Shown here in pieces: positions 1,261 to 61,813 of a DNA stretch of 64,000 nucleotides. The notes below the pieces were generated by a model. That model was not told the DNA's origin and did not search any database. It saw only the letters and a program-made list of their open reading frames with translations. Position 1 is the first letter of the stretch. The number at the start of each line of letters is the position of its first letter. The translations under genes and the position numbers were made by a program. Source of the stretch: a virus. Location of the stretch: the IMG/VR virus record IMGVR_UViG_3300020213_000031; one strand, written 5' to 3'.

Positions 1261-1657
1261 GCAGCCGTTAAGTGCCAGCCAGAGGCGAGCCATAGCGGCG
1301 AAACTGGAGCGTAGGAAGGCGAGGGACTCTTGGGCCGTCATGAAGCTAATGGTGCCGTGTGAGAAGAAAGAGAAGAAGGATCAAAATACTCGGTGAGCCG
1401 AAGACTGAGATGCCTGTACAGCCCATCAATATTCCGATAGTGAAGAGTATGGGGTATCATGGTGGTGGCGGGGACGACTTCTACCTCACTTCAGCATATT
1501 GCGACCGAGATCAGATTCAGTGGATTTATCATCGAGAAATCGCTCGCGGGTTGTCGACCCCCGAACGCATGAGGTGTGATTGCTGTGGTGCAGACTTATA
1601 CGTTTCTAAAAACAACGGTCAATTCATGTCGTCCACAACGATTCCAGAGGTCGTTGG

Positions 1658-2668
1658 ATGGGTAAGGCACGAGAGCAGCAAAATCCTAACCTTGGCCCTT
1701 ATCGAATCGAGCTTAGAGATAACAAGGGACGTTTTACCCGACTTTATTCGAAGGCACGATTTTTCAGGGCGTATTTCCAAAATAAAGCTATATCAAAGCT
1801 CCTACGCTTCCCCGATGGTTGGCTCGTCAAACAAAAACGAGCTTCTGTCGAACTTACAACTTCTCGACACACTAAGCGTTATTTTAAAAAAGAAAAAGAA
1901 GCTAAAGATCGTCGTAAGGGAAGAAAAGCTGGAAGAAAGCCCGCTGTTCGTAAGCCCAGCGTTGAGGAAGAAGCACGAGAAACAGTTGCGGAGCTACCTC
2001 GAGAACGCCCGGAGAATGTCATCCAAACGGAAGACGACGACTTCTTCTGGTCCAGAGTTGAAGCTCTCCGCGACCGACTTGAAGACATTGAGCGAATCCC
2101 TGGACAAGCATCTAAACTCATTTTTCCAATGGAAGCGTCGAGCAGGGGTGTCGCAGCCCATCCCATGAAGCGGCTGGATAAGAAGACGAACAAGTGGGTT
2201 GTCGACAGGGGAAATGTTTTTAAGCGACTTCTGAGTGGCGGGGCGAAGAAGAGGAATCTTATATGGTGGGCAGCGAAGACCTTTTTACAAAAGCTAGGAA
2301 CAAAATACTTCGAGACGGTGGCGCGTCGTACTTCCAAAAGAACTTTATCTTTCCGGGTGTTTCTAACGACAAACCTTCCAAAGCACGAGGAAGTTCTGAT
2401 GGCTCCAGCGGGAGTTCACAGCATAATTTACGATCGAGCGGTAACAAACAAAAAGCTAATGCTCGAAAGAATGACGAGCCAGTTGGTGGCAGGCATTATG
2501 CGCTCTCTCTACAAGGGCGAGGCTTATCCAGAACTGTCGCTAACGAGTTCAGGCGCATTCTTTCAGGTGATACCAGAGTCCGCGAAGTCGATTGGGAAAA
2601 GCTCGACAAAGACCCAGAACTTCAAGCTAGCCTTTACGATTTTCTTGGAAGAGGAATTCTCAAGATAA
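1658..2668 (+). CDS. basic (K/R-rich) hypothetical protein immediately upstream of and overlapping polB; terminal-protein candidate
   Basis: Positional analogy to TP genes upstream of protein-primed polB; overlaps alternative frame 1359-2168 and polB start; boundaries uncertain. Confidence 0.3.
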   Translation: MGKAREQQNPNLGPYRIELRDNKGRFTRLYSKARFFRAYFQNKAISKLLRFPDGWLVKQKRASVELTTSRHTKRYFKKEKEAKDRRKGRKAGRKPAVRKPSVEEEARETVAELPRERPENVIQTEDDDFFWSRVEALRDRLEDIERIPGQASKLIFPMEASSRGVAAHPMKRLDKKTNKWVVDRGNVFKRLLSGGAKKRNLIWWAAKTFLQKLGTKYFETVARRTSKRTLSFRVFLTTNLPKHEEVLMAPAGVHSIIYDRAVTNKKLMLERMTSQLVAGIMRSLYKGEAYPELSLTSSGAFFQVIPESAKSIGKSSTKTQNFKLAFTIFLEEEFSR

Positions 2669-4644
2669 CGAATATCCCCAAGATTCCCTGCCAATATGAG
2701 CCATCAGATAAATTGTATTTAGGCTTAGACACAGAGGACAACTCTAACGGGATTCCACACTTTTACCAGATTGCAACGAGAGATTGCGTTTATATCTGTT
2801 CAAGCTTTCGCGCTCTCTTCAGATACGTCATTCAAGAGTACAAACTCAATTATCGCAATCACGTTGTCTTTGGCACTAACATTGAGTACGAGCTTGGAAA
2901 TATTCTTAAAGACTTTGATGCAAGCCCGGAGACAATGGACATCAAATGGCGCAGGGGCAGGCTAACCAAGTTTGCTTTATCTTACGATCCAGAATTGGCT
3001 TATTGGGGCCGTGACGACGACCGCAAGGGTAAGATGGTTTTTTGGGATACGATGAACCATTGGCCTATGAGCGTCACCAAGATGGGTGAATCGCTAAAAG
3101 AGCATCTTGGCACCGATCTTACAAAACTAGATCGAGATTTCTATGGTTTCAAGTACGCCGCGATGGACGCGATCATTTCTAGGTCTTACGCCTGCATCCA
3201 GCGAGCATATTACGAGAAGAAGGGTATCAAGCTAAAGGCGACGCCAGGATCGACAGCTCTCTGCGTATACGATCAAGGGGTCGGCAAGACGAAGTTCCGC
3301 TCGGAGCGGATCAGGCAAACCCACACACCTGAAGACATTGAATGGATCATGGAGGGGTTACGAGGCGGCAGGACGGAAGTTTTCTCCACGCGAAAGCATT
3401 ACGGGAACGTTGAGTATCTGGACATCAACAGCGCCTATCCATTTTCGATGAAGCATGGAGTGTTCCCAAACCTCATGCAGCACTTCTGGATAGAAGGAGA
3501 TAAAGAAATCAGGGAGTGCATCGACGCCGATTACGAGGGGATGGTTGAATGTGACGTTGAGGCGATAAACCTTCACCCGTTCACGATGATTTACCCGTAT
3601 CTCGGATACAAGGACAACGATACGCAAAGATTCTTTTTCCCTCTCGGAAAATGGAAATCTAAATACACTTTCTTTGAAATCAGAAATGCGGAGAAGCTCG
3701 GATACAAGTTCAAGTTCAGAAAAGCGATCGTCTATGAAAGATGCAAGAAGCATCCATTCCAGAAGTACGTTGATTTTTGCTACGCGATCAGGATGGAGGG
3801 GGACGCAACGAAAAACAAACTCCTTAAAGACGTGGGCAAGTCTTTGGGAAATAATTTGTATGGTAAGTGGGGAGAGCGACAGATTTTCTCCACTCTGGTC
3901 GACCCAGGAAAGTATAATGCCGACGATTTAATCTCATGCGCCAGAATTGGAACAGGCGTTGTGATGGAAGAGGACGAGGGTTACGCCTCTCACACGAACG
4001 GGATTTGGGGTGCCTACATCACAGCAATTTGTCGTGACCTTCTTTATCAGCACATGGTTAGCGCGTGGAATGAAGGCAACGTGATTCTTTACGTCGACAC
4101 TGACGGAATCTTTATCACTGGCGGGAAATTGCCAAAGAATGATCCCGTCAAGCTTGGCGCCTTGAAGCATGAAGGCACTCTTTACTATTTCAGAGCGTAC
4201 TTGCCGAAGCAGTATGAGTATCAATATTTGGATGAGGCTACAGGCTTTGGACGCGTAAATCCAAAAACTGGAAAAACAGAAACAGTTTACAAAGCTAAAG
4301 GTATTCCAGAATTTTACGATATTGTGAATGAGAAAGGTGAAGCCATTCTCGATGCGAACGGGGTTCCAAAGAAGGGGAATTTACGGGAGAAGTTTTTCGC
4401 TACAGGGGAAGCGGACTTTAGGAAGCCGTTGAAGGTTCGGGAAGCGATACGTCGCAAGAAATTCAAAGACCCCAACATCAATCCTGGAATCGACGCGATC
4501 AACGCATGGATTTCTGTAAAGAAAGAGTTGCGCGGGCACCTTACAAAGAGGACGGTGCTCAAGAACGGCTGGACGCTGCCGCTTTGGATTTCAATGAAGC
4601 AGCCTGATTGGTACAGTCCCCCAGAAATGTTCTGTAAGGATTGA
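2263..4644 (+). CDS. family B DNA polymerase with 3'-5' exonuclease, protein-primed (phi29/PRD1-like) type
   Basis: Exo I YLGLDTEDN, Exo III YAAMD, motif A YLDINSAYPFSM (Dx2SLYP-like), motif B KSLGNNLYGKWG (Kx3NSxYG), motif C ILYVDTDGIFI (YxDTDS), KxY-like KQYEY. Confidence 0.85.
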   Translation: MVGSEDLFTKARNKILRDGGASYFQKNFIFPGVSNDKPSKARGSSDGSSGSSQHNLRSSGNKQKANARKNDEPVGGRHYALSLQGRGLSRTVANEFRRILSGDTRVREVDWEKLDKDPELQASLYDFLGRGILKITNIPKIPCQYEPSDKLYLGLDTEDNSNGIPHFYQIATRDCVYICSSFRALFRYVIQEYKLNYRNHVVFGTNIEYELGNILKDFDASPETMDIKWRRGRLTKFALSYDPELAYWGRDDDRKGKMVFWDTMNHWPMSVTKMGESLKEHLGTDLTKLDRDFYGFKYAAMDAIISRSYACIQRAYYEKKGIKLKATPGSTALCVYDQGVGKTKFRSERIRQTHTPEDIEWIMEGLRGGRTEVFSTRKHYGNVEYLDINSAYPFSMKHGVFPNLMQHFWIEGDKEIRECIDADYEGMVECDVEAINLHPFTMIYPYLGYKDNDTQRFFFPLGKWKSKYTFFEIRNAEKLGYKFKFRKAIVYERCKKHPFQKYVDFCYAIRMEGDATKNKLLKDVGKSLGNNLYGKWGERQIFSTLVDPGKYNADDLISCARIGTGVVMEEDEGYASHTNGIWGAYITAICRDLLYQHMVSAWNEGNVILYVDTDGIFITGGKLPKNDPVKLGALKHEGTLYYFRAYLPKQYEYQYLDEATGFGRVNPKTGKTETVYKAKGIPEFYDIVNEKGEAILDANGVPKKGNLREKFFATGEADFRKPLKVREAIRRKKFKDPNINPGIDAINAWISVKKELRGHLTKRTVLKNGWTLPLWISMKQPDWYSPPEMFCKD

Positions 4645-5218
4645 CACCAGATTTCTACCTGCTATATTTTCGTCTTGACCTGATAGGTCGTGCATCCGAG
4701 CACAAGTGATTTCCCTGGTTGGGAGTTGGAATGGAGTTCGATTCTCCGTTCCGGTCATGTCGGAGCCTATCGGGTCATTTTCTTCTTGCACATCACGATA
4801 AAACAATTGCGAACTTAGCGACGCGTGGATAGAGATACTCGGTTTGGTATTCTGGGAGTCGATCCCCGGCGAGTGTTGCAACTTTCTCAAATAACGCGTA
4901 GTGCCGATGCCTCTAGGTGGGTAGCTTCCAGCGAGGGCAAAGGCGCTTTGGGCAGTAAGGCAACTGCAAATTGTCCTTGGATACTTTGGGGTTCGACTCC
5001 CCTCCAACGCTAAGTTCATTTTCTTCTAGCATTTAATCACCATTATGATATGACCTACTTCTTCGTAGGTCGCGTGGAGCGGCTAACCCCTCGCCTGATA
5101 AGTGAGGCTCGACCATGTATTAAGAAAATTCGAATGTAGGGGCGACCACCTTGAAACTCGATAAGCCTAAACCTTTGGTCGGGTAGAGGCACTCCACACT
5201 AATTTTAAGGAGGCATTT

Positions 5219-23709: not shown

Positions 23710-24268
23710 AACTCACATGATGACCAATACAAGGGTTCATCGAATTTGGAGGGCGATGCTTTCCCGCTGTCGTAATCCCAAAACCATCAACTACAAACAC
23801 TACGGAGGTAGGGGCATCCGCGTCTGCAAGCGGTGGGAGAAATTCGAGAACTTCTTCGCCGACATGGGGCACCCGCCAGAGAGCCACAGTCTAGATAGAA
23901 TAAATTCAAACGGAAACTATGAGGCCAGAAATTGTCGGCGGTCAAGTCAGATTGAACAGGTGCGGAATACCAATAAAACCATTCGACTTACAATTAACGG
24001 AGCAACAAAGCCGATGGCAGAGTGGTGCCAAGAGCGCGGGATCAGCTACGGCGCAGCCATTAGGAGGCTCCGGAAAGGCTTGTCACATAGTGCGGTACTT
24101 TCTCCATCTCGATTGCCCATGTCAAAGACCAAGAAGCGGCTGATAAGCGACGAACAAATGAAAGAAGTTAGGACGAGGCGTGCGGCGGGTGAAACGCTTG
24201 CGAGCATCGGCGCATCTTTCAACGTGAAGAAGGATCACATTTGGGCGCGACTAAAGGACTCCCCATGA
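23702..24268 (+). CDS. HNH-like homing endonuclease / AP2-type DNA-binding protein
   Basis: YKHYGGRGIRVCKRW..FENFFADMG...LDRINSNGNY...NCR pattern common to phage HNH endonucleases. Confidence 0.5.
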   Translation: MPKTHMMTNTRVHRIWRAMLSRCRNPKTINYKHYGGRGIRVCKRWEKFENFFADMGHPPESHSLDRINSNGNYEARNCRRSSQIEQVRNTNKTIRLTINGATKPMAEWCQERGISYGAAIRRLRKGLSHSAVLSPSRLPMSKTKKRLISDEQMKEVRTRRAAGETLASIGASFNVKKDHIWARLKDSP

Positions 24269-25079
24269 CCGAAGACAAACTACTCTATCATTTCCAAAAG
24301 GGCGGCGAGAAATGATCTGGAATTCCATTAAGTCCATTTTCTGGTGTGGGGTTTTTCACAAGTTCAAACCTTGCATGGATTTGGGCTATCCGGACATTGC
24401 TCCAACGAAAAGTGATATTGGGCAAGATTGCTTGTGCGCAGTTTGCGGGACCACATACGAGGTAACAGGATGAACGTTTCCATCTGCAAATCCTGCCACC
24501 AACAAATCGACGCGGGCGACAAGCACGAGTGCCCGCTTGCCGCTCGCAACGATGACAAGTTTGCAACTCTTCGCTTGGGTGTACTGGGTGTTGAAAAATC
24601 CGCTCAGCGAAGATCAAGAAGATATGGCAAAATCTATCAATAATCTTTTTGCGCTTCTCGGAACGCGGGAAGCGGAAATAAAGAAGCTCAAAGAAAAACT
24701 GGCGAGGGTTGGCACAACCACTTGCTCGCATGGAACGCCGACGAGCGAAAGGTGTGAGATGCTCATGATGGCTTGTTTAGTTCTTGTTGCTGTGGGGCTG
24801 TGGTTCATTCGCGAAGAGCGGAGGATGAAATGAGCATGATGGGTGAAGCCATAGCGTCTGAAAATTTTGACATAATGAAGTTTAGGCTAGAGCGAGCAGA
24901 AGCGGTCATCGCTGAAATGGAGCGAGCCGCGCTTTCAAGAATCGTGTGGCTTAAAGACTGTAGAGACGCGGGCTATTCGAATATGGAAGGCGCCGACAGT
25001 AAAGAGTTTATCTATTGGGAAAAGTGGGCTGAAAATTGCGCTGCCGAGGTTCAAAAGGAAAATAAATCACTCGAGATTC

Positions 25080-25968: not shown

Positions 25969-26045
25969 GGCCCAGTAGCTCAGATGGTCAGAGCGGCTGT
26001 TTTCAACTCAGTGCGTCGCGGATTCGAATTCCGCCTGGGCCTCCA
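25969..26045 (+). tRNA. tRNA with anticodon UCA (opal/UGA-reading; tRNA-Sup or Trp/other-UCA), CCA encoded
   Basis: Perfect 7-bp acceptor GGCCCAG/CTGGGCC, D-arm GCTC-AGATGGTCA-GAGC, anticodon loop TTTCAAC (U33, A37), T-arm GCGGA-TTCGAAT-TCCGC, discriminator U, CCA. Confidence 0.8.
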
Positions 26046-51769: not shown

Positions 51770-51794
51770 TTTTCGTTCTCCAAGCGCGTCATAG

Positions 51795-52975
51795 TTGACC
51801 TCCTCCCCATGCCTAAAGGCAGGGGATTCCCTTAAGCGACGTTAGCCGCTCTTAGCGTATCAAGTCCGATACGGAGGATATTTTTTGCGGCGTTAACATC
51901 TCTGTCGTGTTGACAGGAACACTCGCTGCAAATCCATCCTCTAATTCCAAGACCACTTGGTCCGCTCGGTCCAGTCTTTTTAAGACAAGAAGAGCAAGTG
52001 ATCGTAGAAGCAAACTCTGATACATCAACAACCAACCCCTGGTGCCTTATGGCTTTTTGCTTCAGGATCTGGCGGAACATTCCGGTAGATGCATCTTGTG
52101 AACTTTTACCATGCGACGCTTGCAGGAACTTCCCGCTTACGTCGCCAACAAATATTGTTTTATACTTTCTGGCTAACTCCAAAGTTTTCTTGTGCAGAAA
52201 GTCTTTGCGGATATTTTTAATCTTTGCAGACAGCTTTTGCGCCTGTCTTTTCTTTCGGTGTCTCTGAAAACCGGCCAGCTTATTCTCATGCTTTAAAAAG
52301 ATTCTAGGGTTTTCAACTTTGCTACCGTCGCTTAACACAGCGATATCTTTCAATCCTAAATCAACCCCAACAGCGTCGATTGCGTGGCTTGTTTCGATAG
52401 TGGGAGTTTCAGCGACTAAGTTAATATACCAGTGGCCCCGAGCATCTTGCGAGAAGGAGCCGCACTTGATCTTACCTGGCAGGTCCCGTGACTTCCAGAA
52501 CTTGAAAGCTTGCTTGGCGTAGGTAGCTTTATTGCCATCAATTTTTACACCGGTTGCTTTAAAGGGCACCCAGCCTAGAGACTTCTTTGACCCGCTAGAT
52601 GCCCGCCAGCGAAGTTTTCTCTTCTTAAATTGTATTCTGCGGGTTGCGTACTCTTCTCCAATCGCCTGAACTGTTTGCGAATGAAGCCCTATCTCTTTCC
52701 CGGCACCTGCGGTCAAGTAGTTGAGGTCAAAACCAGATAGGAAGTCCGAGTGATTTCTAATGGCGTTGAAGCTTGTTTCGTTGCAGAAATTCCACACAAA
52801 GTTAACCGATTTAGAAAGGGCAGAAAGCTTTCTACAAGAGAACCCTCCCTTAATTCGGTAGCGATATGTTAACATCATGGAAGCCTTGTAACGTACAATG
52901 TCGATAGAGTCAAGAAGGAAGTACGCCTTATATCCCCACGCCTAAAGGCGGGGGTTTTACGGCGGCGCTGATAAA
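51795..52975 (-). mobile_element. IS200/IS605-family element carrying only tnpB (IS1341-like); boundaries approximate
   Basis: Imperfect subterminal hairpins CCCCATGCC-TAAA-GGCAGGGG (51805-51825) and CCCCACGCC-TAAA-GGCGGGGG (52934-52954) flank tnpB. Confidence 0.6.
51832..52878 (-). CDS. tnpB: TnpB (IS605 OrfB) RuvC-like RNA-guided nuclease
   Basis: RuvC-I GVDLGLKDIAV, RuvC-II-like FVGDVS, zinc finger CSSC...CSECSC, RuvC-III HDRDVNAAKNI. Confidence 0.8.
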   Translation of the reverse strand: MMLTYRYRIKGGFSCRKLSALSKSVNFVWNFCNETSFNAIRNHSDFLSGFDLNYLTAGAGKEIGLHSQTVQAIGEEYATRRIQFKKRKLRWRASSGSKKSLGWVPFKATGVKIDGNKATYAKQAFKFWKSRDLPGKIKCGSFSQDARGHWYINLVAETPTIETSHAIDAVGVDLGLKDIAVLSDGSKVENPRIFLKHENKLAGFQRHRKKRQAQKLSAKIKNIRKDFLHKKTLELARKYKTIFVGDVSGKFLQASHGKSSQDASTGMFRQILKQKAIRHQGLVVDVSEFASTITCSSCLKKTGPSGPSGLGIRGWICSECSCQHDRDVNAAKNILRIGLDTLRAANVA

Positions 52976-53924: not shown

Positions 53925-54370
53925 AATGGTGTACCCGGCGAGAATCGAACTCGCGTCCTAAAGTTTTTTCATTCTACAGTCGACATGTTTTTGCGCCCAA
54001 GGCGACACCGAAGTGTCGGGTGGAGATTAAAATCTAGGGGTCTTTCAACCCCCAGACCAGGGCGACCGATTTCTCGGCCACCTCCACCAACCAGATTCTT
54101 ACGATAAGCTCTGGCAAGCTCCCTGCACTTTCCTTCTTGCGAAGTGGACTGCACTACCATTTTTGCCTTTCTTCTTTAACTGGCGCTCAGGCGGCACCAC
54201 AGTCTTCCGTTTTTAGGCGGCGAACTGAAGAGCCGTAGCATTGCTGCCACGGTTCTTGCGAATCACGAAAGATTCAGCATTTACATTTGCGTCCAGATGA
54301 TAACTCAACAAGTACGCCTCTGAGACATGCAGTAGAATTTCCAAACTCCAGTCGAAACCAATTCGGGCAC
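53925..54370 (-). ncRNA. ssrA: tmRNA (ssrA)
   Basis: 5' GUGCCCGAAUUGGUUUCGACUGG and 3' GGACGCGAGUUCGAUUCUCGCCGGGUACACCA match the tmRNA tRNA-like domain; acceptor GUGCCCG/CGGGUAC pairs; internal ORF ending ...ALQFAA-stop. Confidence 0.85.
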
Positions 54371-54610
54371 TTTTAAAATCAACTGAAGAGAGAAGTACCG
54401 GCTGCTCTTAACGCTGGGCCAGCGCAGAGCTTGGCTTGACTCGCATTAATCTTGTACTTCAAAAACCGAACTCTCAAATTGCCTCGATCGACCACCTGCC
54501 GGTCCTCGACCAAACCAACTGCAAGCACTTCTTCTCTCCTCAATTCATTTCAAAATCGTCTAAACACCATTAACATTTCCAAAAAAATAAGCAAGAAATA
54601 TTTCTTACTT

Positions 54611-54889
54611 TTATTCGCTCCCACCACTCGGCGGCTCGATGAAGACGCCCGACTCGCCCTCTATCTCTGTAATCTTTTTTCTACAATAAATACACAGTCT
54701 AATTTTTTTCGTCGCCATGATCCACTTCTTACAATCCGGCCCTAAGCATTGTTTCCTTTTCTCCGGATCGCCCTCGGCGAAGGAAACAAATTGGTGCTTT
54801 TCGACATTTCTCCGATTGCGTTGTTTCAACATCATTCTGGCTAGGATAAGCCATGCAGTGAAACTGTCAACGATTTTGTTGCTTTTCAA
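54611..54889 (-). CDS. zinc-ribbon hypothetical protein
   Basis: CLGPDC...CIYC motif. Confidence 0.35.
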   Translation of the reverse strand: MKSNKIVDSFTAWLILARMMLKQRNRRNVEKHQFVSFAEGDPEKRKQCLGPDCKKWIMATKKIRLCIYCRKKITEIEGESGVFIEPPSGGSE

Positions 54890-55801
54890 GCTCTTGATTT
54901 AGTTCAAGTTCGATCTCCTCACAGACCTTTCGAGCTGCCTGCTCCTCCTGACGAATGGAGCCTAATTTGAGCGCTATATAGGTGTGCCGATCCACCGCCC
55001 GGTCGAACTTCTTCTTCAGCCACTCAGCCTTTGTTAGAAGCTTCTCCGCCAAGCTGCGCCTCGATTTCTGCCTTCCGCTTGTCGTGGACCTGGCGCAGGA
55101 TGTGATACTTCACCACATCCGTTCCTTCGCGAATCCGCCTCAACTGTGGAATGGCCTCCCTCGTGAATCGCCACAAACTGTAACCGGCCACGGCGTTCGA
55201 GAGCGCAATCACAAACCAACAAATCGACGCAATCACTTTATCTCCTTCACGCTCATGGGGGTGGCGGTAAATACCTCATAGTGCAAGTCTGGGTTAGAGA
55301 ACTTGAGCCTTTCGGCCCAGCGGATAGCCTTAGTGCGGTTGCTCCTGAACACACCATAGAATTGGTAGTCGAAGGGGCAGATGTGCTTTCCGTCTTGCAC
55401 TACGAAGTAAACTTTTTTCATAATCTATAAAGGCCCGAGGAGTCGTGATTCGGTCTGCGCAAGAACCCACTGGACCCAAAGTTTCCACTTTGGCCCGCAA
55501 GACGAGAATGCGAACATTCCGCCCACTTTGTTCACCGCGACCAATTCCTTATTCTCCCAGTTGTTGCGAATATAAGCTCTTTTCATTTTCCATCTCCTGT
55601 AAAAGCCATTCACGGCGGTTTTTCCATTCCAGAACTGGCACTCTGGAAAATTCATCAAAGCAATATTGAGCAAGTCTGCGAAGAAGTTCAAGCTTTGAAT
55701 TGTGATCTTTCCTCAAAGCCGCATCTTTGCGCTTTCTAAGATACTTGCGCCTTCGCTCATCAGGCGTCGACCTTAACGGCACGTCAGCTCTCGGTCCCTG
55801 C

Positions 55802-58722: not shown

Positions 58723-59099
58723 TCTGGCTCCTTGGAGGGTGGTGATTGATGGGGTACAATTTAGTGGAGGTAGCGCCCCATGCGTCTATGTGAATGGTGG
58801 TCATTGACCAACGATAAGTCAAGTCGGATCGAAGGCTTTTTCCCCTCGTGGGATAAAGCCAAAATTCACGCTGTAAGGCTGGGCCTCGAAGCCTTTACTA
58901 TTGTTCGAGGAGAAGTTGAATGGACACCCTACTCGCCCTTGCCCTCATCTCAGGATGCTCTAGCTTCCTCGCCTGCTTCTTCCTTGGAAGATTGCTCGAA
59001 CCAAGGCGTAAAGAGCGCGAAAGGCTAGCTGATTGCCTTTTCGTTGGTCTGGCGGCGGGTGCGTTCGTCGCTTTCCTTGCCCTTCCCTGGCTAGGCTAG

Positions 59100-60284
59100 G
59101 GGAGCTGAAATTAAACAAATTTTGTTTATTTTGTAGGTGTTTCTGGCTTGGGTAAGGCTAGGGTAAGGCGAAAAAGGCCAGCCCTGGCTACCCTGGATTA
59201 TGGGTAAGGGCAGCATTCCACTTACCCCCTCCCTTGGGTAGGTTCAAAGCTAGCCCATAGGCCCATACCCTTGCCCTTGGGTACGTCCTTCGGGTTGACG
59301 CAGGGCGGCTTGCATAGTCCTACTAATTTGGTACTATAGCTTGTAACGGTGCGTTATAGCCCTAGCCAATAACCTACGGGTAGGTATGACATAGCGTGCT
59401 AAGCCTATAGGGCTATGCGGCAAGGTAGCTGCAAAGGGTAAATGACCAGGGAAGGAACTAGCTAAGCTAGTGTTTTTCCCTGGTTTTTTATTGTCTGCTT
59501 TCTGGCATATATAGGAAAGAAAACGGCGCACGAAAAAAATGGTGATTAGTGCTTTTTGTTCTTCCCTTTCCTTTTCCTCTGTGGAATAACTCTTTTACGC
59601 CGAACAAACACGGCAAGCGGCTAGGCGCTAACCTAGCAGGGAAGGAAAGCAAGTTTATGATGCACCTAACCGTATCGGGAAATTGTCGGGAAAGGCAGAA
59701 ACAGCGTAACGCGCTGCGTAAGCAAATTTCCTCTGATTTCCTTCTTACCGCGCAAAAAGCACGGGAAGAAAAGCGCACACGTCAAGGTACAAGGGTAATT
59801 CCTTGGCTATGCGTAGGCGCGAAGCCGATGCGTCGCATTATCCGAAACGAAACGGTTATAATGCTCCGCGCTGCTACCTAACCTTAGCGCATCACGTCTA
59901 ACGTGGTGTGACTAGGTTAACTCACGAAATTTTTCGTGGGGTGTTATTTCACAATTTGACCGCGCAAAAGTGCGCGGCGCGTCCTAGTTGGGCACGCGAA
60001 CCAAGGCCCGACGATTTACAAAAATGATTTCCTGCGTCACGCGGTAAACGTGACGTGGAAAATTTAGGGGGAGTGATGCGTCAAGGCATCGCTCCTCTAA
60101 CACAGCGCAAAAATTCGCGTCTAGTCTTAATTGGCTAGGCGCTTTTTTGCGTTGCGTTGGAGCAATCCTAAAACGAAAAATAAAGGCCATGGCAATTTAG
60201 TCTTGAGCGTTTCCCATGCATCGCATGGGCTTCGCTGAACAAACCTCCTCCCATTAACCCGGGGGCACTACAGAAGGAAGCCGA
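59100..60284. other. 1.2-kb non-coding region with AT-rich palindrome, GGGTAAGG iteron-like repeats and at least 7 stable hairpins
   Basis: No credible ORF; repeats and palindromes read directly (see findings). Confidence 0.5.
59445..59493 (+). terminator. terminator-like hairpin ACCAGGGAA-22nt-TTCCCTGGT + TTTTTTATT
   Basis: 9-bp stem followed by U-tract. Confidence 0.45.
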
Positions 60285-60734
60285 ATGTCAAAACTCGAAG
60301 ACCTAACGCCGCTTGAAGTCACCGTTTTAAAAGCCCTGTTTGCCTCGTCTAACGGCAACGGCAACGGCCACGACTTCGGCTTCACCGACGATGATGGCGT
60401 AAGGGCTAGCTGCAAACCTAGCCAGCTTGGGGCCATAATTGCCTCTCTTTCAACCAAGAATATTCTTACTGTATATCCACCTGAAAAGATCAACGGAGAA
60501 CATTGGGTAACACAGTTTTCGTTTAATGATTCTAGTGAGATTGAACGCATGTTAAGCGGGAGCGTTGCCAATGTTCTTGATGGACTAACTCCCGATATTC
60601 AAGCTGCGCAATGCTTTCGCAGAAAGCGCCATTGCTTCGACTGCGGCGAAGTGCTCGACACCTGGGACAAGGGGCCAGTTTGCATCACGTGCGTAGACGT
60701 TTGGCACAGTGAAAATGAAGATGAAAGCGAATAA
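60285..60734 (+). CDS. hypothetical protein with C-terminal zinc ribbon
   Basis: GGAAG RBS; CFDCGE...CITC. Confidence 0.4.
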   Translation: MSKLEDLTPLEVTVLKALFASSNGNGNGHDFGFTDDDGVRASCKPSQLGAIIASLSTKNILTVYPPEKINGEHWVTQFSFNDSSEIERMLSGSVANVLDGLTPDIQAAQCFRRKRHCFDCGEVLDTWDKGPVCITCVDVWHSENEDESE

Positions 60735-60774
60735 GGCTCTGGCAATTTTGTGCCTATAACTGAAAGGGAAAATA

Positions 60775-61110
60775 ATGGAAACGATTACGAAAGAAAATCT
60801 GCTCGTCGGCGATTTACTAGTAAATCACGGCGGCGCTACTATGCGATGGAATAATCTCCTACAAGTCACGCAAGTGACGGGTAATAAGGTTTATTTTACT
60901 ACGCCGCTTGCTAGCAGCAACGGAAATCAGGAGGGCGATAATTGGATTACCGGATTAGCGGTATCCAACGTCGTCACGCATAAGGCTAAATTCCACAACG
61001 GGCGTTTAGTTTATTGCGGGAAAATGTCCGACAACGGGTTCAAGGCCCATTATTGGTCTTTTCTTCACCGCACGACTATCGGAGAGAAACATTGCTACTA
61101 CGGAGATTAA
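60775..61110 (+). CDS. hypothetical protein
   Basis: ORF only. Confidence 0.35.
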   Translation: METITKENLLVGDLLVNHGGATMRWNNLLQVTQVTGNKVYFTTPLASSNGNQEGDNWITGLAVSNVVTHKAKFHNGRLVYCGKMSDNGFKAHYWSFLHRTTIGEKHCYYGD

Positions 61111-61111
61111 A

Positions 61112-61813
61112 ATGCAAACACTTCTCAGCATTGGGGCTAATCCAAAATTAGCGAAATCCGATGCGCTGGGAAAATATCTCACGGCAGGTCTAACACTGGC
61201 TCCACATAAATCAGTGTGGGGCCATAATTCTTGCACGTGGGCAACTCCCGGCTGCATTGGAATGTGTCTGCGCTTTGCTGGAAGGGGAGTAATGGCTCCC
61301 GTCCATGCGGCGCGTGTTCGGAAAAGTGAACTGTACTATTCCGATCCCAAAAAGTTCGAGCTTCACATTTCTAAGGAAATAGAAACTTTCGAACGTAGAG
61401 CCAAAAAGCGCGGCAAGCAATTGGCTGCAAGGCTGAATGTGTTGTCAGACCTGGAATGGGAAGCGGTAGTCCGCCGCCATTCAAGCGTAACTTTTTATGA
61501 CTACACAAAAAACGAAGACCGGCTCATGCGATATTCTCGCGGCGAATTGCCGCCGAACTATTACCTGATTCTTTCTCGTTCGGAAATGAATGAAGACTTT
61601 TGCCGCGTGGCACTCCGCAAGGCGTGGTCTAACGTGGCTATCGTCTTTCGCATCAAAAAGGGAAAAGCTCTTCCTGAGAAATGGTGGGGCTATCCGGTTA
61701 TTGATGGTGATAAGCATGACCTAAGATTTACTGATCCCAAGGGCGTAGTCGTCGGACTTCGCGCCAAGGGTAGAGCAATGAAAGACAAGTCAGGTTTCGT
61801 AGTAAACCCTTGA
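61112..61813 (+). CDS. phage GP88-like family protein (tentative)
   Basis: N-terminal GANPKLAKS...TAGLTLAP...CTWATPGCIGMC pattern recalled from phage Gp88-family proteins; uncertain. Confidence 0.35.
   Translation: MQTLLSIGANPKLAKSDALGKYLTAGLTLAPHKSVWGHNSCTWATPGCIGMCLRFAGRGVMAPVHAARVRKSELYYSDPKKFELHISKEIETFERRAKKRGKQLAARLNVLSDLEWEAVVRRHSSVTFYDYTKNEDRLMRYSRGELPPNYYLILSRSEMNEDFCRVALRKAWSNVAIVFRIKKGKALPEKWWGYPVIDGDKHDLRFTDPKGVVVGLRAKGRAMKDKSGFVVNP

Follow-up and report, generated by a model that had tools for sequence, protein, structure and literature searches.

In a 64,000-nt phage genome segment (hereafter the window, to whose 64 kb all window-wide counts refer), positions 59100-60165 hold a stretch poor in open reading frames (ORFs) that we read, at a probability of about one half, as the cis-regulatory control and leader region of an early plus-strand operon. 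The region sits between a short plus-strand pair of small genes and a long plus-strand early block, which begins at 60285, extends to the end of the window and includes genes of the GP88 and DUF7007 families. From 5' to 3' it is laid out as an AT-rich palindrome, three 18-bp palindromic sites, a predicted promoter (P1) with a short terminated transcript, a small gene for a basic protein of 74 amino acids (aa; ORF74), and a string of seven helices (H1 to H7) that would form one structured RNA.

The comparisons behind this reading cover six metagenomic lineages so far, the window and five relatives. Close homologues of the GP88-family protein (gene at 61112-61813) are 87%, 76% and 75% identical and lie on contigs of 14-19 kb. 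The loci L006/L007, L008 and L009 are syntenic with the window and share its gene order: a DUF5661 protein and then an acidic protein are encoded on the minus strand, two small genes follow on the plus strand, and an ORF-poor gap, 1.1-1.4 kb long, separates these from GP88. L014 was added by a search with the small ORF inside the gap and differs in its flanking genes, and L019 was added by a profile search of 1.84 billion proteins; the latter is a 922-nt fragment that spans P1 to H6/H7 only. Four of the five related lineages (L006/L007, L008, L009 and L014) have this ORF-poor gap between GP88 and the acidic-protein gene. In the more distant GP88 loci (L010-L013, about 49% identity) the genes are densely packed and the gap is missing, and the control region, judged by these alignments, is therefore specific to a small clade. 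Searches of IMG/VR with the 149-aa, 584-aa, GP88 and 145-aa proteins gave no syntenic relative, a nucleotide search of 50,697 phage records left the region without a match, and a degenerate H2 pattern found nothing in IMG/VR and chance hits only in 185,579 genomes, one of them within a histidine-kinase gene. The neighbouring 149-aa gene has almost no homologues, and its two weak relatives, L001 and L005, are not syntenic.

The position of the RNA in the relatives is what ties it to the early genes. There, GP88 or an ORF of 45-60 aa comes directly after it; the next ATG lies 25-32 nt beyond H7 in L006, L009 and L014, a gap occupied by the Shine-Dalgarno sequence only, and about 10 nt beyond it in L008. 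Because H7 stands just ahead of the Shine-Dalgarno sequence of the next gene, by about 10-30 nt, the RNA would belong to the 5' leader of the early operon. Moreover, no conserved promoter is visible inside the structured RNA, which together with the short distance from H7 to the ATG argues that the early operon is transcribed through the RNA and its terminator-like elements.

The structured RNA and its neighbour ORF74

Judged by the lineages compared, the hairpin string at 59876-60165 is a single RNA on the plus strand, about 290 nt long, that has kept its structure rather than its sequence, and it is a new structured family so far found only in these six lineages. Its minimum free energy (MFE) is -138.5 kcal/mol, against -86.4 ± 5.4 kcal/mol for dinucleotide shuffles (z = -9.6), and the equivalent RNA in relatives has z-scores of -8.9, -12.8, -9.8 and -6.0. 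In all five sequences folding favours the plus strand over the minus strand, by 12-32 kcal/mol, and 11-13 G-U pairs are formed. Substitutions between the window and L006 are spread evenly over the RNA's codon positions (19/15/20), that is, without codon periodicity, and when the window, L006, L009 and L014 are folded one by one, the seven helices come in the same order. A scan against Rfam release 15, proposed earlier as a check, gave no match, whether at gathering or at permissive thresholds: the best hit in the window was sub-threshold (24.7 bits against a gathering score of 59), and the four relatives scanned gave nothing at E <= 0.1 except tRNA.

An earlier note on this DNA had picked out six perfect hairpins here, at 59893-59905, 59923-59938, 59960-59977, 60035-60055, 60070-60095 and 60213-60229. 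They are present at a density far beyond chance, and the suggestion of a regulatory hub or of non-coding RNA is borne out; however, they are not independent elements but parts of a single multi-helix RNA that starts at the ORF74 stop codon. Only the last of them, CCCATGC-atc-GCATGGG (60213-60229, plus strand), falls outside the conserved RNA, in the spacer before the 149-aa gene and within a segment that the relatives lack.

All seven helices are on the plus strand. H1 (59879-59919), whose 5' strand begins in the ORF74 stop codon, is followed by the GC-rich H2 (59921-59940), and the conserved U-rich tail after H2 gives a terminator-like site at 59921-59950. Across four lineages, H1/H2 are 98% paired with three doubly changed pairs; across five, 99.2% of the cells are paired and 10 of the 25 pairs are changed on both sides, in an alignment that was fitted to a covariance model. 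None of 500 shuffles reached the observed value, and slid controls paired at 31-43%. Four lineages served to build R1, a covariance model of H1, H2 and the tail; R1 recovered the left-out L019 (40.5 bits, E ~1e-7), many of whose pairs are compensated, and found no second copy within the window.

Further 3', H3 (59960-59977) has all seven of its positions paired in four lineages, with two or three pair types at most of the positions, and H4 (59978-59998) is a weaker helix that is broken in L006. H5 (60028-60061) carries the heptaloop CGGUAAA (60042-60048), which is identical in the window, L006, L008, L009 and L019 and reads CGGCAAAU in L014; its stems are wholly different between lineages yet paired, and it is the sole such hairpin in the window. 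H6 (60067-60098) is a perfect hairpin with a different stem sequence in each lineage, all positions being paired with three or four pair types. H7 (60095-60162) is long and imperfect, its inner part (60117-60142) being followed by TTTTTT; the inner hairpin with its U6 (60117-60148) was listed as a terminator by the terminator scan and has equivalents in L006, L008, L009 and L014. For H3, H5, H6 and H7 alike, stem sequences are essentially unrelated among lineages and every loop-anchored position nevertheless pairs, with two to four pair types. A second covariance model (R2), built on H5-H7 of the window and L006 only, recovered L014 at 44.5 bits, L008 at 37.6 and L009 at 30.3 (E from 1e-11 to 3e-7), all on the plus strand and in the syntenic place. 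Helix lengths vary between lineages, from 9 to 28 bp for H5 and with a loop of 4-27 nt for H6. The whole can be divided into two modules, of which the first (ORF74 with H1/H2) is found in five lineages and is missing as a unit from L008, and the second (H5-H7) is found in all five lineages covering the stretch; the truncated L019 shows at least H5 and the next hairpin.

The region had been described as free of ORFs over 59030-60284, with spurious ORFs on both strands. Most of it is indeed ORF-poor, but ORF74 (59657-59881, plus strand), which encodes a basic protein with 17 lysine and arginine residues against 5 aspartate and glutamate residues, is by its substitution pattern a real gene under purifying selection. 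Compared with the same-length ORF of L006, its ratio of non-synonymous to synonymous substitution rates (dN/dS) is 0.10, and GP88 has 0.06 in these two lineages; the first, second and third codon positions hold 18, 11 and 40 substitutions, with 30 synonymous and 18 non-synonymous codon changes. Divergent homologues of 78, 79 and 99 aa stand at the same position in L009, L014 and L019, all of the genes being preceded by a Shine-Dalgarno sequence, and L008 has no homologue. Among 1.84 billion proteins the family as a whole amounts to four clusters. With TGA, TAG or TAA read as sense codons, no long ORF opened across 59100-60284, so that the ORF-poor gap is not a recoding artefact, despite a tRNA(UCA) elsewhere in the window. 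The GC content of 59001-60000 is 0.50.

Predicted promoter and short transcript, and palindromic sites

P1 (59310-59337, plus strand) is a predicted promoter of sigma-70 type, with TTGCAT at 59310-59315, a 16-nt spacer, TACTAT at 59332-59337 and TGG before the -10. Its hexamers are kept in relatives (TTGCCT/TACTAT in L006, TTGCAT/TACTAT in L008, TTGCTA/TATAGT in L014) and the spacer sequence varies; in L019 the -10 reads TGGTATAAT. A scan for consensus promoters omitted P1, as its -35 matches at only three of six positions. Just upstream of the -35, a GC-rich box, GGTTGACGCAGGGC at 59293-59306 (TTAACGCGGGGC in relatives), is kept in L006, L008, L014 and L019.

From P1, an RNA of about 150 nt (59344-59490, plus strand, with predicted ends), either a leader or a small RNA, would run to the intrinsic terminator T1, a stem at 59444-59485 with U6 about 100 nt after P1. 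The fold of this RNA has an MFE z-score of -4.0, and in the window, L006 and L008 the T1 stem keeps 10 pairs ahead of its U6, two of these through compensatory change; no obvious equivalent of T1 is seen in L009 and L014. The promoter and the terminated RNA of about 150 nt that the earlier note had proposed thus hold up, as both the hexamers and a covarying T1 are found in the window, L006 and L008. The long-range pairing of TATAGCCCTA with TAGGGCTATA that was proposed alongside them makes 9 bp in the window sequence and is not supported by the comparative fold. Similarly, a P1 stem of TATAGCCCTA with TAGGGCTAT was abandoned, as the three-lineage consensus fold does not recover it. Two sequence coincidences were also seen, an 11-nt identity between the T1 5' arm (59447-59457) and the Shine-Dalgarno region of ORF74 (59637-59647), and a 10-nt perfect complementarity between the small RNA (59361-59370) and the H7 3' arm (60130-60139). 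Cross-talk of the small RNA with H7, or between T1 and the ORF74 Shine-Dalgarno region, was rejected as an explanation, as such lengths are expected by chance in 1.5 kb and the matches are not cleanly kept in L006.

Between T1 and ORF74 stands a further conserved element, TATATAGGA-N15/16-GAAAAAA (59508-59538, plus strand), which occurs once in the window. Five lineages have TATATAGGA without change, L019 has TATAATAAGA in its place, and the GAAAAAA run is present in four lineages, with AATAAAA in L014. The box may be the -10 of a second promoter or a sigma-dependent pause element in the leader. Two other promoter candidates were dropped: a phage-specific T7-like promoter, suggested by TATAG motifs, because the window has no more repeats of TATATAGGA and GGTACTATAG than chance would give, and TATAAT at 59857-59862 as the promoter of an independent hairpin RNA, because it is not conserved in L006.

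Upstream of P1, three copies of the palindrome TACCC-N8-GGGTA stand at 59189-59206, 59223-59240 and 59266-59283. With the P1 start taken at about 59344, their centres lie near -147, -113 and -70 and the sites span about -155 to -46. With spacers of every length from 2 to 14 allowed, the window has no other perfect site. All three copies are perfect in L006, those of L008 have at most one mismatch, and in both relatives site 3 stands at a similar distance from the promoter; in L009 and L014 their place is taken by three or four copies of TACTC-N8-GAGTA, with both half-sites changed in each and the 8-nt spacer retained. Start-to-start spacing is 34-43 bp in the window and 24-27 bp in L014. In L019 only, a related palindrome, ACCTACC-N6-GGTAGGT, lies over the -35 and spacer. 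The fixed geometry and the concerted switch of half-sites point to a putative dimeric DNA-binding protein, and the copies are read as DNA sites because 5-bp stems with 8-nt loops would make feeble RNA hairpins. ORF74 as the sole binder was rejected, as L008 has sites of the GGGTA type and no ORF74 homologue.

These repeats had earlier been taken for iterons. The listed motifs, here and in the rest of the region, all occur in the sequence at or within a few bases of where they had been placed, and a search of the window for the iteron consensus confirms that it is concentrated here: GGGTAAGG has four copies, three of which (59150, 59161 and 59202) fall within 60 bp, against 0.9 expected in 64 kb. 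The inverted CTTACCCC is also present, as are CCCTTGGGTA copies at 59231 and 59274. The repeats are therefore real and dense regulator binding remains a good description, but they are better read as the three 18-bp palindromes. Two tandem half-site copies of GGGTAAGGC (59150-59169, plus strand; at 59150 and 59161, 11 bp apart) have no counterpart in the relatives and are specific to this phage.

The 5' boundary of the region is set by two conserved small genes on the plus strand. An 82-aa gene (58780-59028) overlaps a gene for a 59-aa two-helix membrane protein (58920-59099), whose homologues (57-59 aa in L006, L008 and L009; 63 aa in L014) keep its position and, in L006, L008 and L009, its hydrophobic pattern. 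As both are conserved genes, the non-coding stretch starts at 59100, and the first 70 nt of the region as originally reported (59030-59099) are the 3' end of the 59-aa gene. The 82-aa protein falls into the same two sub-types as the palindromes, but phylogeny splits everything likewise. Directly 3' of the stop of the 59-aa gene, the AT-rich palindrome AAATTAAACAAA / TTTGTTTATTTT (59108-59132, with arms at 59108-59119 and 59121-59132) is kept in every lineage covering it (L006, L008, L009 and L014).

A proposed leader function and its alternatives

If the region is the control and leader region of the early operon, its parts could work together as follows. A dimeric, sequence-specific phage protein bound to the palindromes would set P1 activity, and transcription toward the early genes would pass two or three terminators, namely T1 (where present), the H2 tail and H7. 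The folded leader RNA could then make RNA polymerase read through these, possibly with ORF74 bound via a basic helix, or, alternatively, could set the frequency of read-through, as processive antitermination or attenuation like that of lambda N/nut or HK022 put. A second role for the long stem of H7 may be as a processing site of RNase III type. A specific antitermination mechanism of the N or put kind, which is argued from anatomy and analogy, is a tentative proposal and well short of an even chance. It is similarly doubtful, though worth stating, that the seven-helix RNA with its CGGUAAA loop represents a class of transcription-reprogramming phage RNA not described before, which would solve the terminator problem in a third way next to N/nut and put; such an RNA might mostly be paired with a dedicated arginine-rich protein of 74-99 aa, in an uncultivated clade with its own tmRNA and opal-suppressor-like tRNA, and this too is only a speculative possibility. 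Attenuation in the style of trp, in which the 3' arm of H1 would pair with the 5' arm of H2, was rejected, as hand pairing gives only 4-6 bp, too weak against H2.

Lambdoid phages have terminators ahead of their early genes, and either N/nut or put RNAs acting in cis allow transcription past them (PMC9378689, PMC2724277). The region resembles lambda N/nut in having an early promoter, a hairpin RNA, a small basic-protein gene with a basic N-terminal helix, and terminators before the early genes (PMC9378689, PMC2724277). However, ORF74 has neither sequence nor fold similarity to N, and in place of boxA and boxB (a 5-bp stem with a pentaloop) there are about 290 nt with seven helices and a heptaloop. 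Furthermore, the hairpins are downstream of the gene rather than upstream, and one lineage has the 3' module without the protein. ORF74 is thus reminiscent of N by resemblance only, and the region is a member of neither N/nut nor put. The HK022 put RNAs are cis-acting, about 70 nt long with two stem-loops, and bind the zinc-binding domain of the RNA polymerase beta' subunit; putR lies about 270 nt from its promoter, and a -10-like pause box aids the folding of putL (PMC9378689). The likeness to put is that a folded nascent RNA would lie between an early promoter and the terminators ahead of the early genes, and the putL pause box suggests a possible role for the TATATAGGA box here. No dedicated phage protein is needed by put. 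The candidate RNA differs in its seven helices and length and has no sequence resemblance to put.

Two other lambdoid arrangements can be compared. Their operators OR1-3 and OL1-3 are sets of three 17-18-bp dyad sites by an early promoter, and the site sequences differ like immunity specificities; three dyad sites near an early promoter and a two-type switch of specificity between related phages are found here as well. In contrast to those operators, the present sites do not overlap the -35 or -10, their spacing of 34-43 bp is not the 23-24 bp of lambdoid operators, there is no adjacent divergent repressor gene, and no integrase or CI-like gene was found in the proteins scanned. The lambda PR'-6S RNA-tR' unit has a constitutive promoter and a short terminated transcript of about 150-190 nt, and read-through opens a long operon. 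The short terminated P1 transcript ahead of an operon is of comparable size; however, Q depends on a site in the promoter DNA, neither a site of this kind nor a Q-like protein can be recognised here, and the operon is early rather than late.

Several points weigh against this reading of the region or against parts of its proposed mechanism. All transcript starts and ends are inferred from sequence, and the covariation statistics are small-sample, with only six lineages and alignments partly fitted to the model. An insertion of about 950 bp (60163-61110), absent from the syntenic relatives, holds the 149-aa and 111-aa genes (60285-61110, plus strand) and separates the RNA from GP88 in this phage, where it may bring its own promoter. 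The U-tract of H7 pairs with an upstream A-tract, and H7 may thus be a poor terminator. L008 keeps H5-H7 without ORF74 and H1/H2, which argues that the protein is not needed for the universal part. ORF74 shows no similarity to any Pfam, PHROG or PDB entry and none to lambda N, and its AlphaFold 2 (AF2) model, a long N-terminal helix (residues 10-42) with a C-terminal beta-hairpin, is of low confidence (predicted local distance difference test score, pLDDT, 63.5). Among H1-H7 there is no element of the boxA or boxB type; CUCUAAC at the base of H7 has a loose resemblance to boxA only and is base-paired. Lastly, no cognate regulator gene was identified for the palindromes, and in the window, L006 and L008 even the nearest of them stops 26 bp short of the -35. 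Without overlap of the core promoter, simple occlusion is unlikely, which suggests activation, looping or a roadblock to transcription from the upstream genes as possible modes.

The 150-nt P1 transcript and the 290-nt RNA, the latter derived from a 3' UTR or by processing, could instead be stand-alone, trans-acting RNAs serving as regulators of phage or host mRNAs, as a scaffold for ORF74 or as an anti-defence decoy. This is an unlikely alternative but one with some substance, as the P1 transcript forms a discrete unit from promoter to terminator, and the larger RNA is extremely stable, conserved in structure, genetically linked to a tiny basic protein and endowed with a conserved heptaloop that suggests a specific binding partner. 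It is opposed by the location of the RNA between the promoters and the first early gene, with no space for a further promoter in four lineages, by the lack of an Rfam match, and by the finding of no conserved target complementarity, the match of the small RNA to the H7 3' arm not being cleanly kept in L006.

A replication origin, which the earlier note had raised as a theta, rolling-circle or secondary origin, is distinctly unlikely. The dyad sites would be iterons and the AT-rich palindrome an unwinding element, with transcription from P1 or a second promoter (P2) activating or priming replication in the manner of lambda ori, T7/T4 or ColE1 RNA II. The region does recall lambda ori and the ColE1 RNA II-RNA I-Rom system in its dyad sites by an AT-rich element, its long structured transcript, its short RNA and its small helical protein. 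Three repeated 18-bp sites were found where at least three would be looked for, conserved in number and geometry, and their arrangement beside the AT-rich element is kept in the five lineages covering it. The 24-27 bp spacing of the L014 sites resembles the site spacing of lambda ori, and the region adjoins the early block containing the polymerase if the genome is circular or permuted. However, there is no antisense arrangement as in ColE1, and no initiator, helicase or primase was recognised among the 40 window proteins scanned; the neighbouring 82-aa, 59-aa, ORF74, 149-aa and GP88 proteins have no replication-initiator domain. The DNA polymerase, a 793-aa PolB at 2263-4644 (plus strand), belongs to the organellar and viral, protein-primed family PF03175 of Pfam and has no sequence match to any PDB chain; known protein-primed members start replication at genome ends. 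Moreover, the AT-rich element spans no more than about 25 bp, at a distance of 55-70 bp from the sites, and the cumulative GC skew, which had been suggested as a check for origin function, has its minimum at about 55-56 kb and its maximum at about 25 kb, without an inflection at 59.2 kb. The G-U-rich, strand-asymmetric hairpins favour RNA over DNA function. In ORF-poor, G+T-rich sequence at 1-540, upstream of the polymerase block, three tandem copies of a 78-nt unit (193-426; 100%, 99% and 67% identity) make an iteron candidate at least as good, and an origin or another RNA gene is plausible there. Alternatively, the structured RNA could itself prime or activate replication for a PolB phage without a recognisable primase.

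A leader that senses a ligand or signal, like a riboswitch or thermosensor, with H1-H6 as the sensor, H7 as the terminator platform and no phage protein, so that a metabolite or condition of the host would gate the early genes, has very little probability. A conserved multi-helix fold directly before a terminator and gene start, with conserved single-stranded stretches in the H2 tail and the CGGUAAA loop, is what such a leader would present, and L008 does without ORF74; on the other hand, few junction nucleotides are conserved, helix lengths vary to a degree unusual for aptamers, no alternative antiterminator pairing was identified, and no riboswitch in Rfam matches. A packaging site, also raised earlier, is highly improbable: three repeated sites by an AT-rich and possibly bent element recall lambda cosB, in which R sites occur with an IHF (integration host factor) site, but these sites lie in front of the early operon, go together with a conserved promoter and stand about 33 kb from the start of the structural module (about 26 kb), where no terminase is recognisable.

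A control module at the head of an early phage operon is of a kind that specialists expect, and the surprise is moderate. If the leader reading is true, the early genes would be under two layers of control, an operator array of switched specificity and a large conserved leader RNA of no described family, which would add a tractable RNA element, and possibly an RNA-binding mini-protein, to the few known antitermination and attenuation devices. The CGGUAAA loop and the palindromes are precise targets for mutagenesis and pull-downs. More generally, an ORF-poor phage region can conceal a real 74-codon gene, and iteron-like repeats can be palindromic operators.

Genome context and further observations

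The genome, of about 68 kb, is that of a tailed phage. Its source contig, of 67,993 bp, is metagenomic (JGI 3300020057, SRR6448211). Its structural module occupies about 26-48 kb of the window and contains a 1,087-aa ORF that is probably the tape measure, judged by size only. A tRNA(UCA) gene (25969-26045, plus strand; labelled SeC by ARAGORN), opal-suppressor-like, overlaps the nominal start of the 646-aa ORF that heads this module. TGA still ends 18 of the 51 long ORFs, and the phage is thus not globally recoded. A gene resembling transfer-messenger RNA (tmRNA; 53927-54370, minus strand; Rfam RF00023, 67 bits) is full length and flanked on either side by phage genes; its acceptor has a G3-U pair, CCA is encoded, and the tag frame reads AESFVIRKNRGSNATALQFAA up to a stop. 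It was not called by ARAGORN. The adjoining stretch 54371-55023, like 23710-24772 and 1261-2262, is one of the other stretches of 0.65-1.1 kb without convincing ORFs, and none of the three matches Rfam at the gathering threshold.

The product of the 149-aa gene in the insertion has a winged-helix-like N-terminus and a C-terminal CxxC...CxxC pattern. In L009, the minus-strand block upstream of the conserved region carries a tRNA gene (4625-4701, minus strand) and a small ORF (1489-1680, minus strand) with a weak Pfam match to CsrA, an RNA-binding regulator. A TnpB gene in the window (51832-52878, minus strand) encodes OrfB_IS605 and Cas12f-like TNB domains; its guide (omega) RNA would be expected just downstream on the minus strand, and a weak Rfam hit resembling HgcC lies at 51782-51924.

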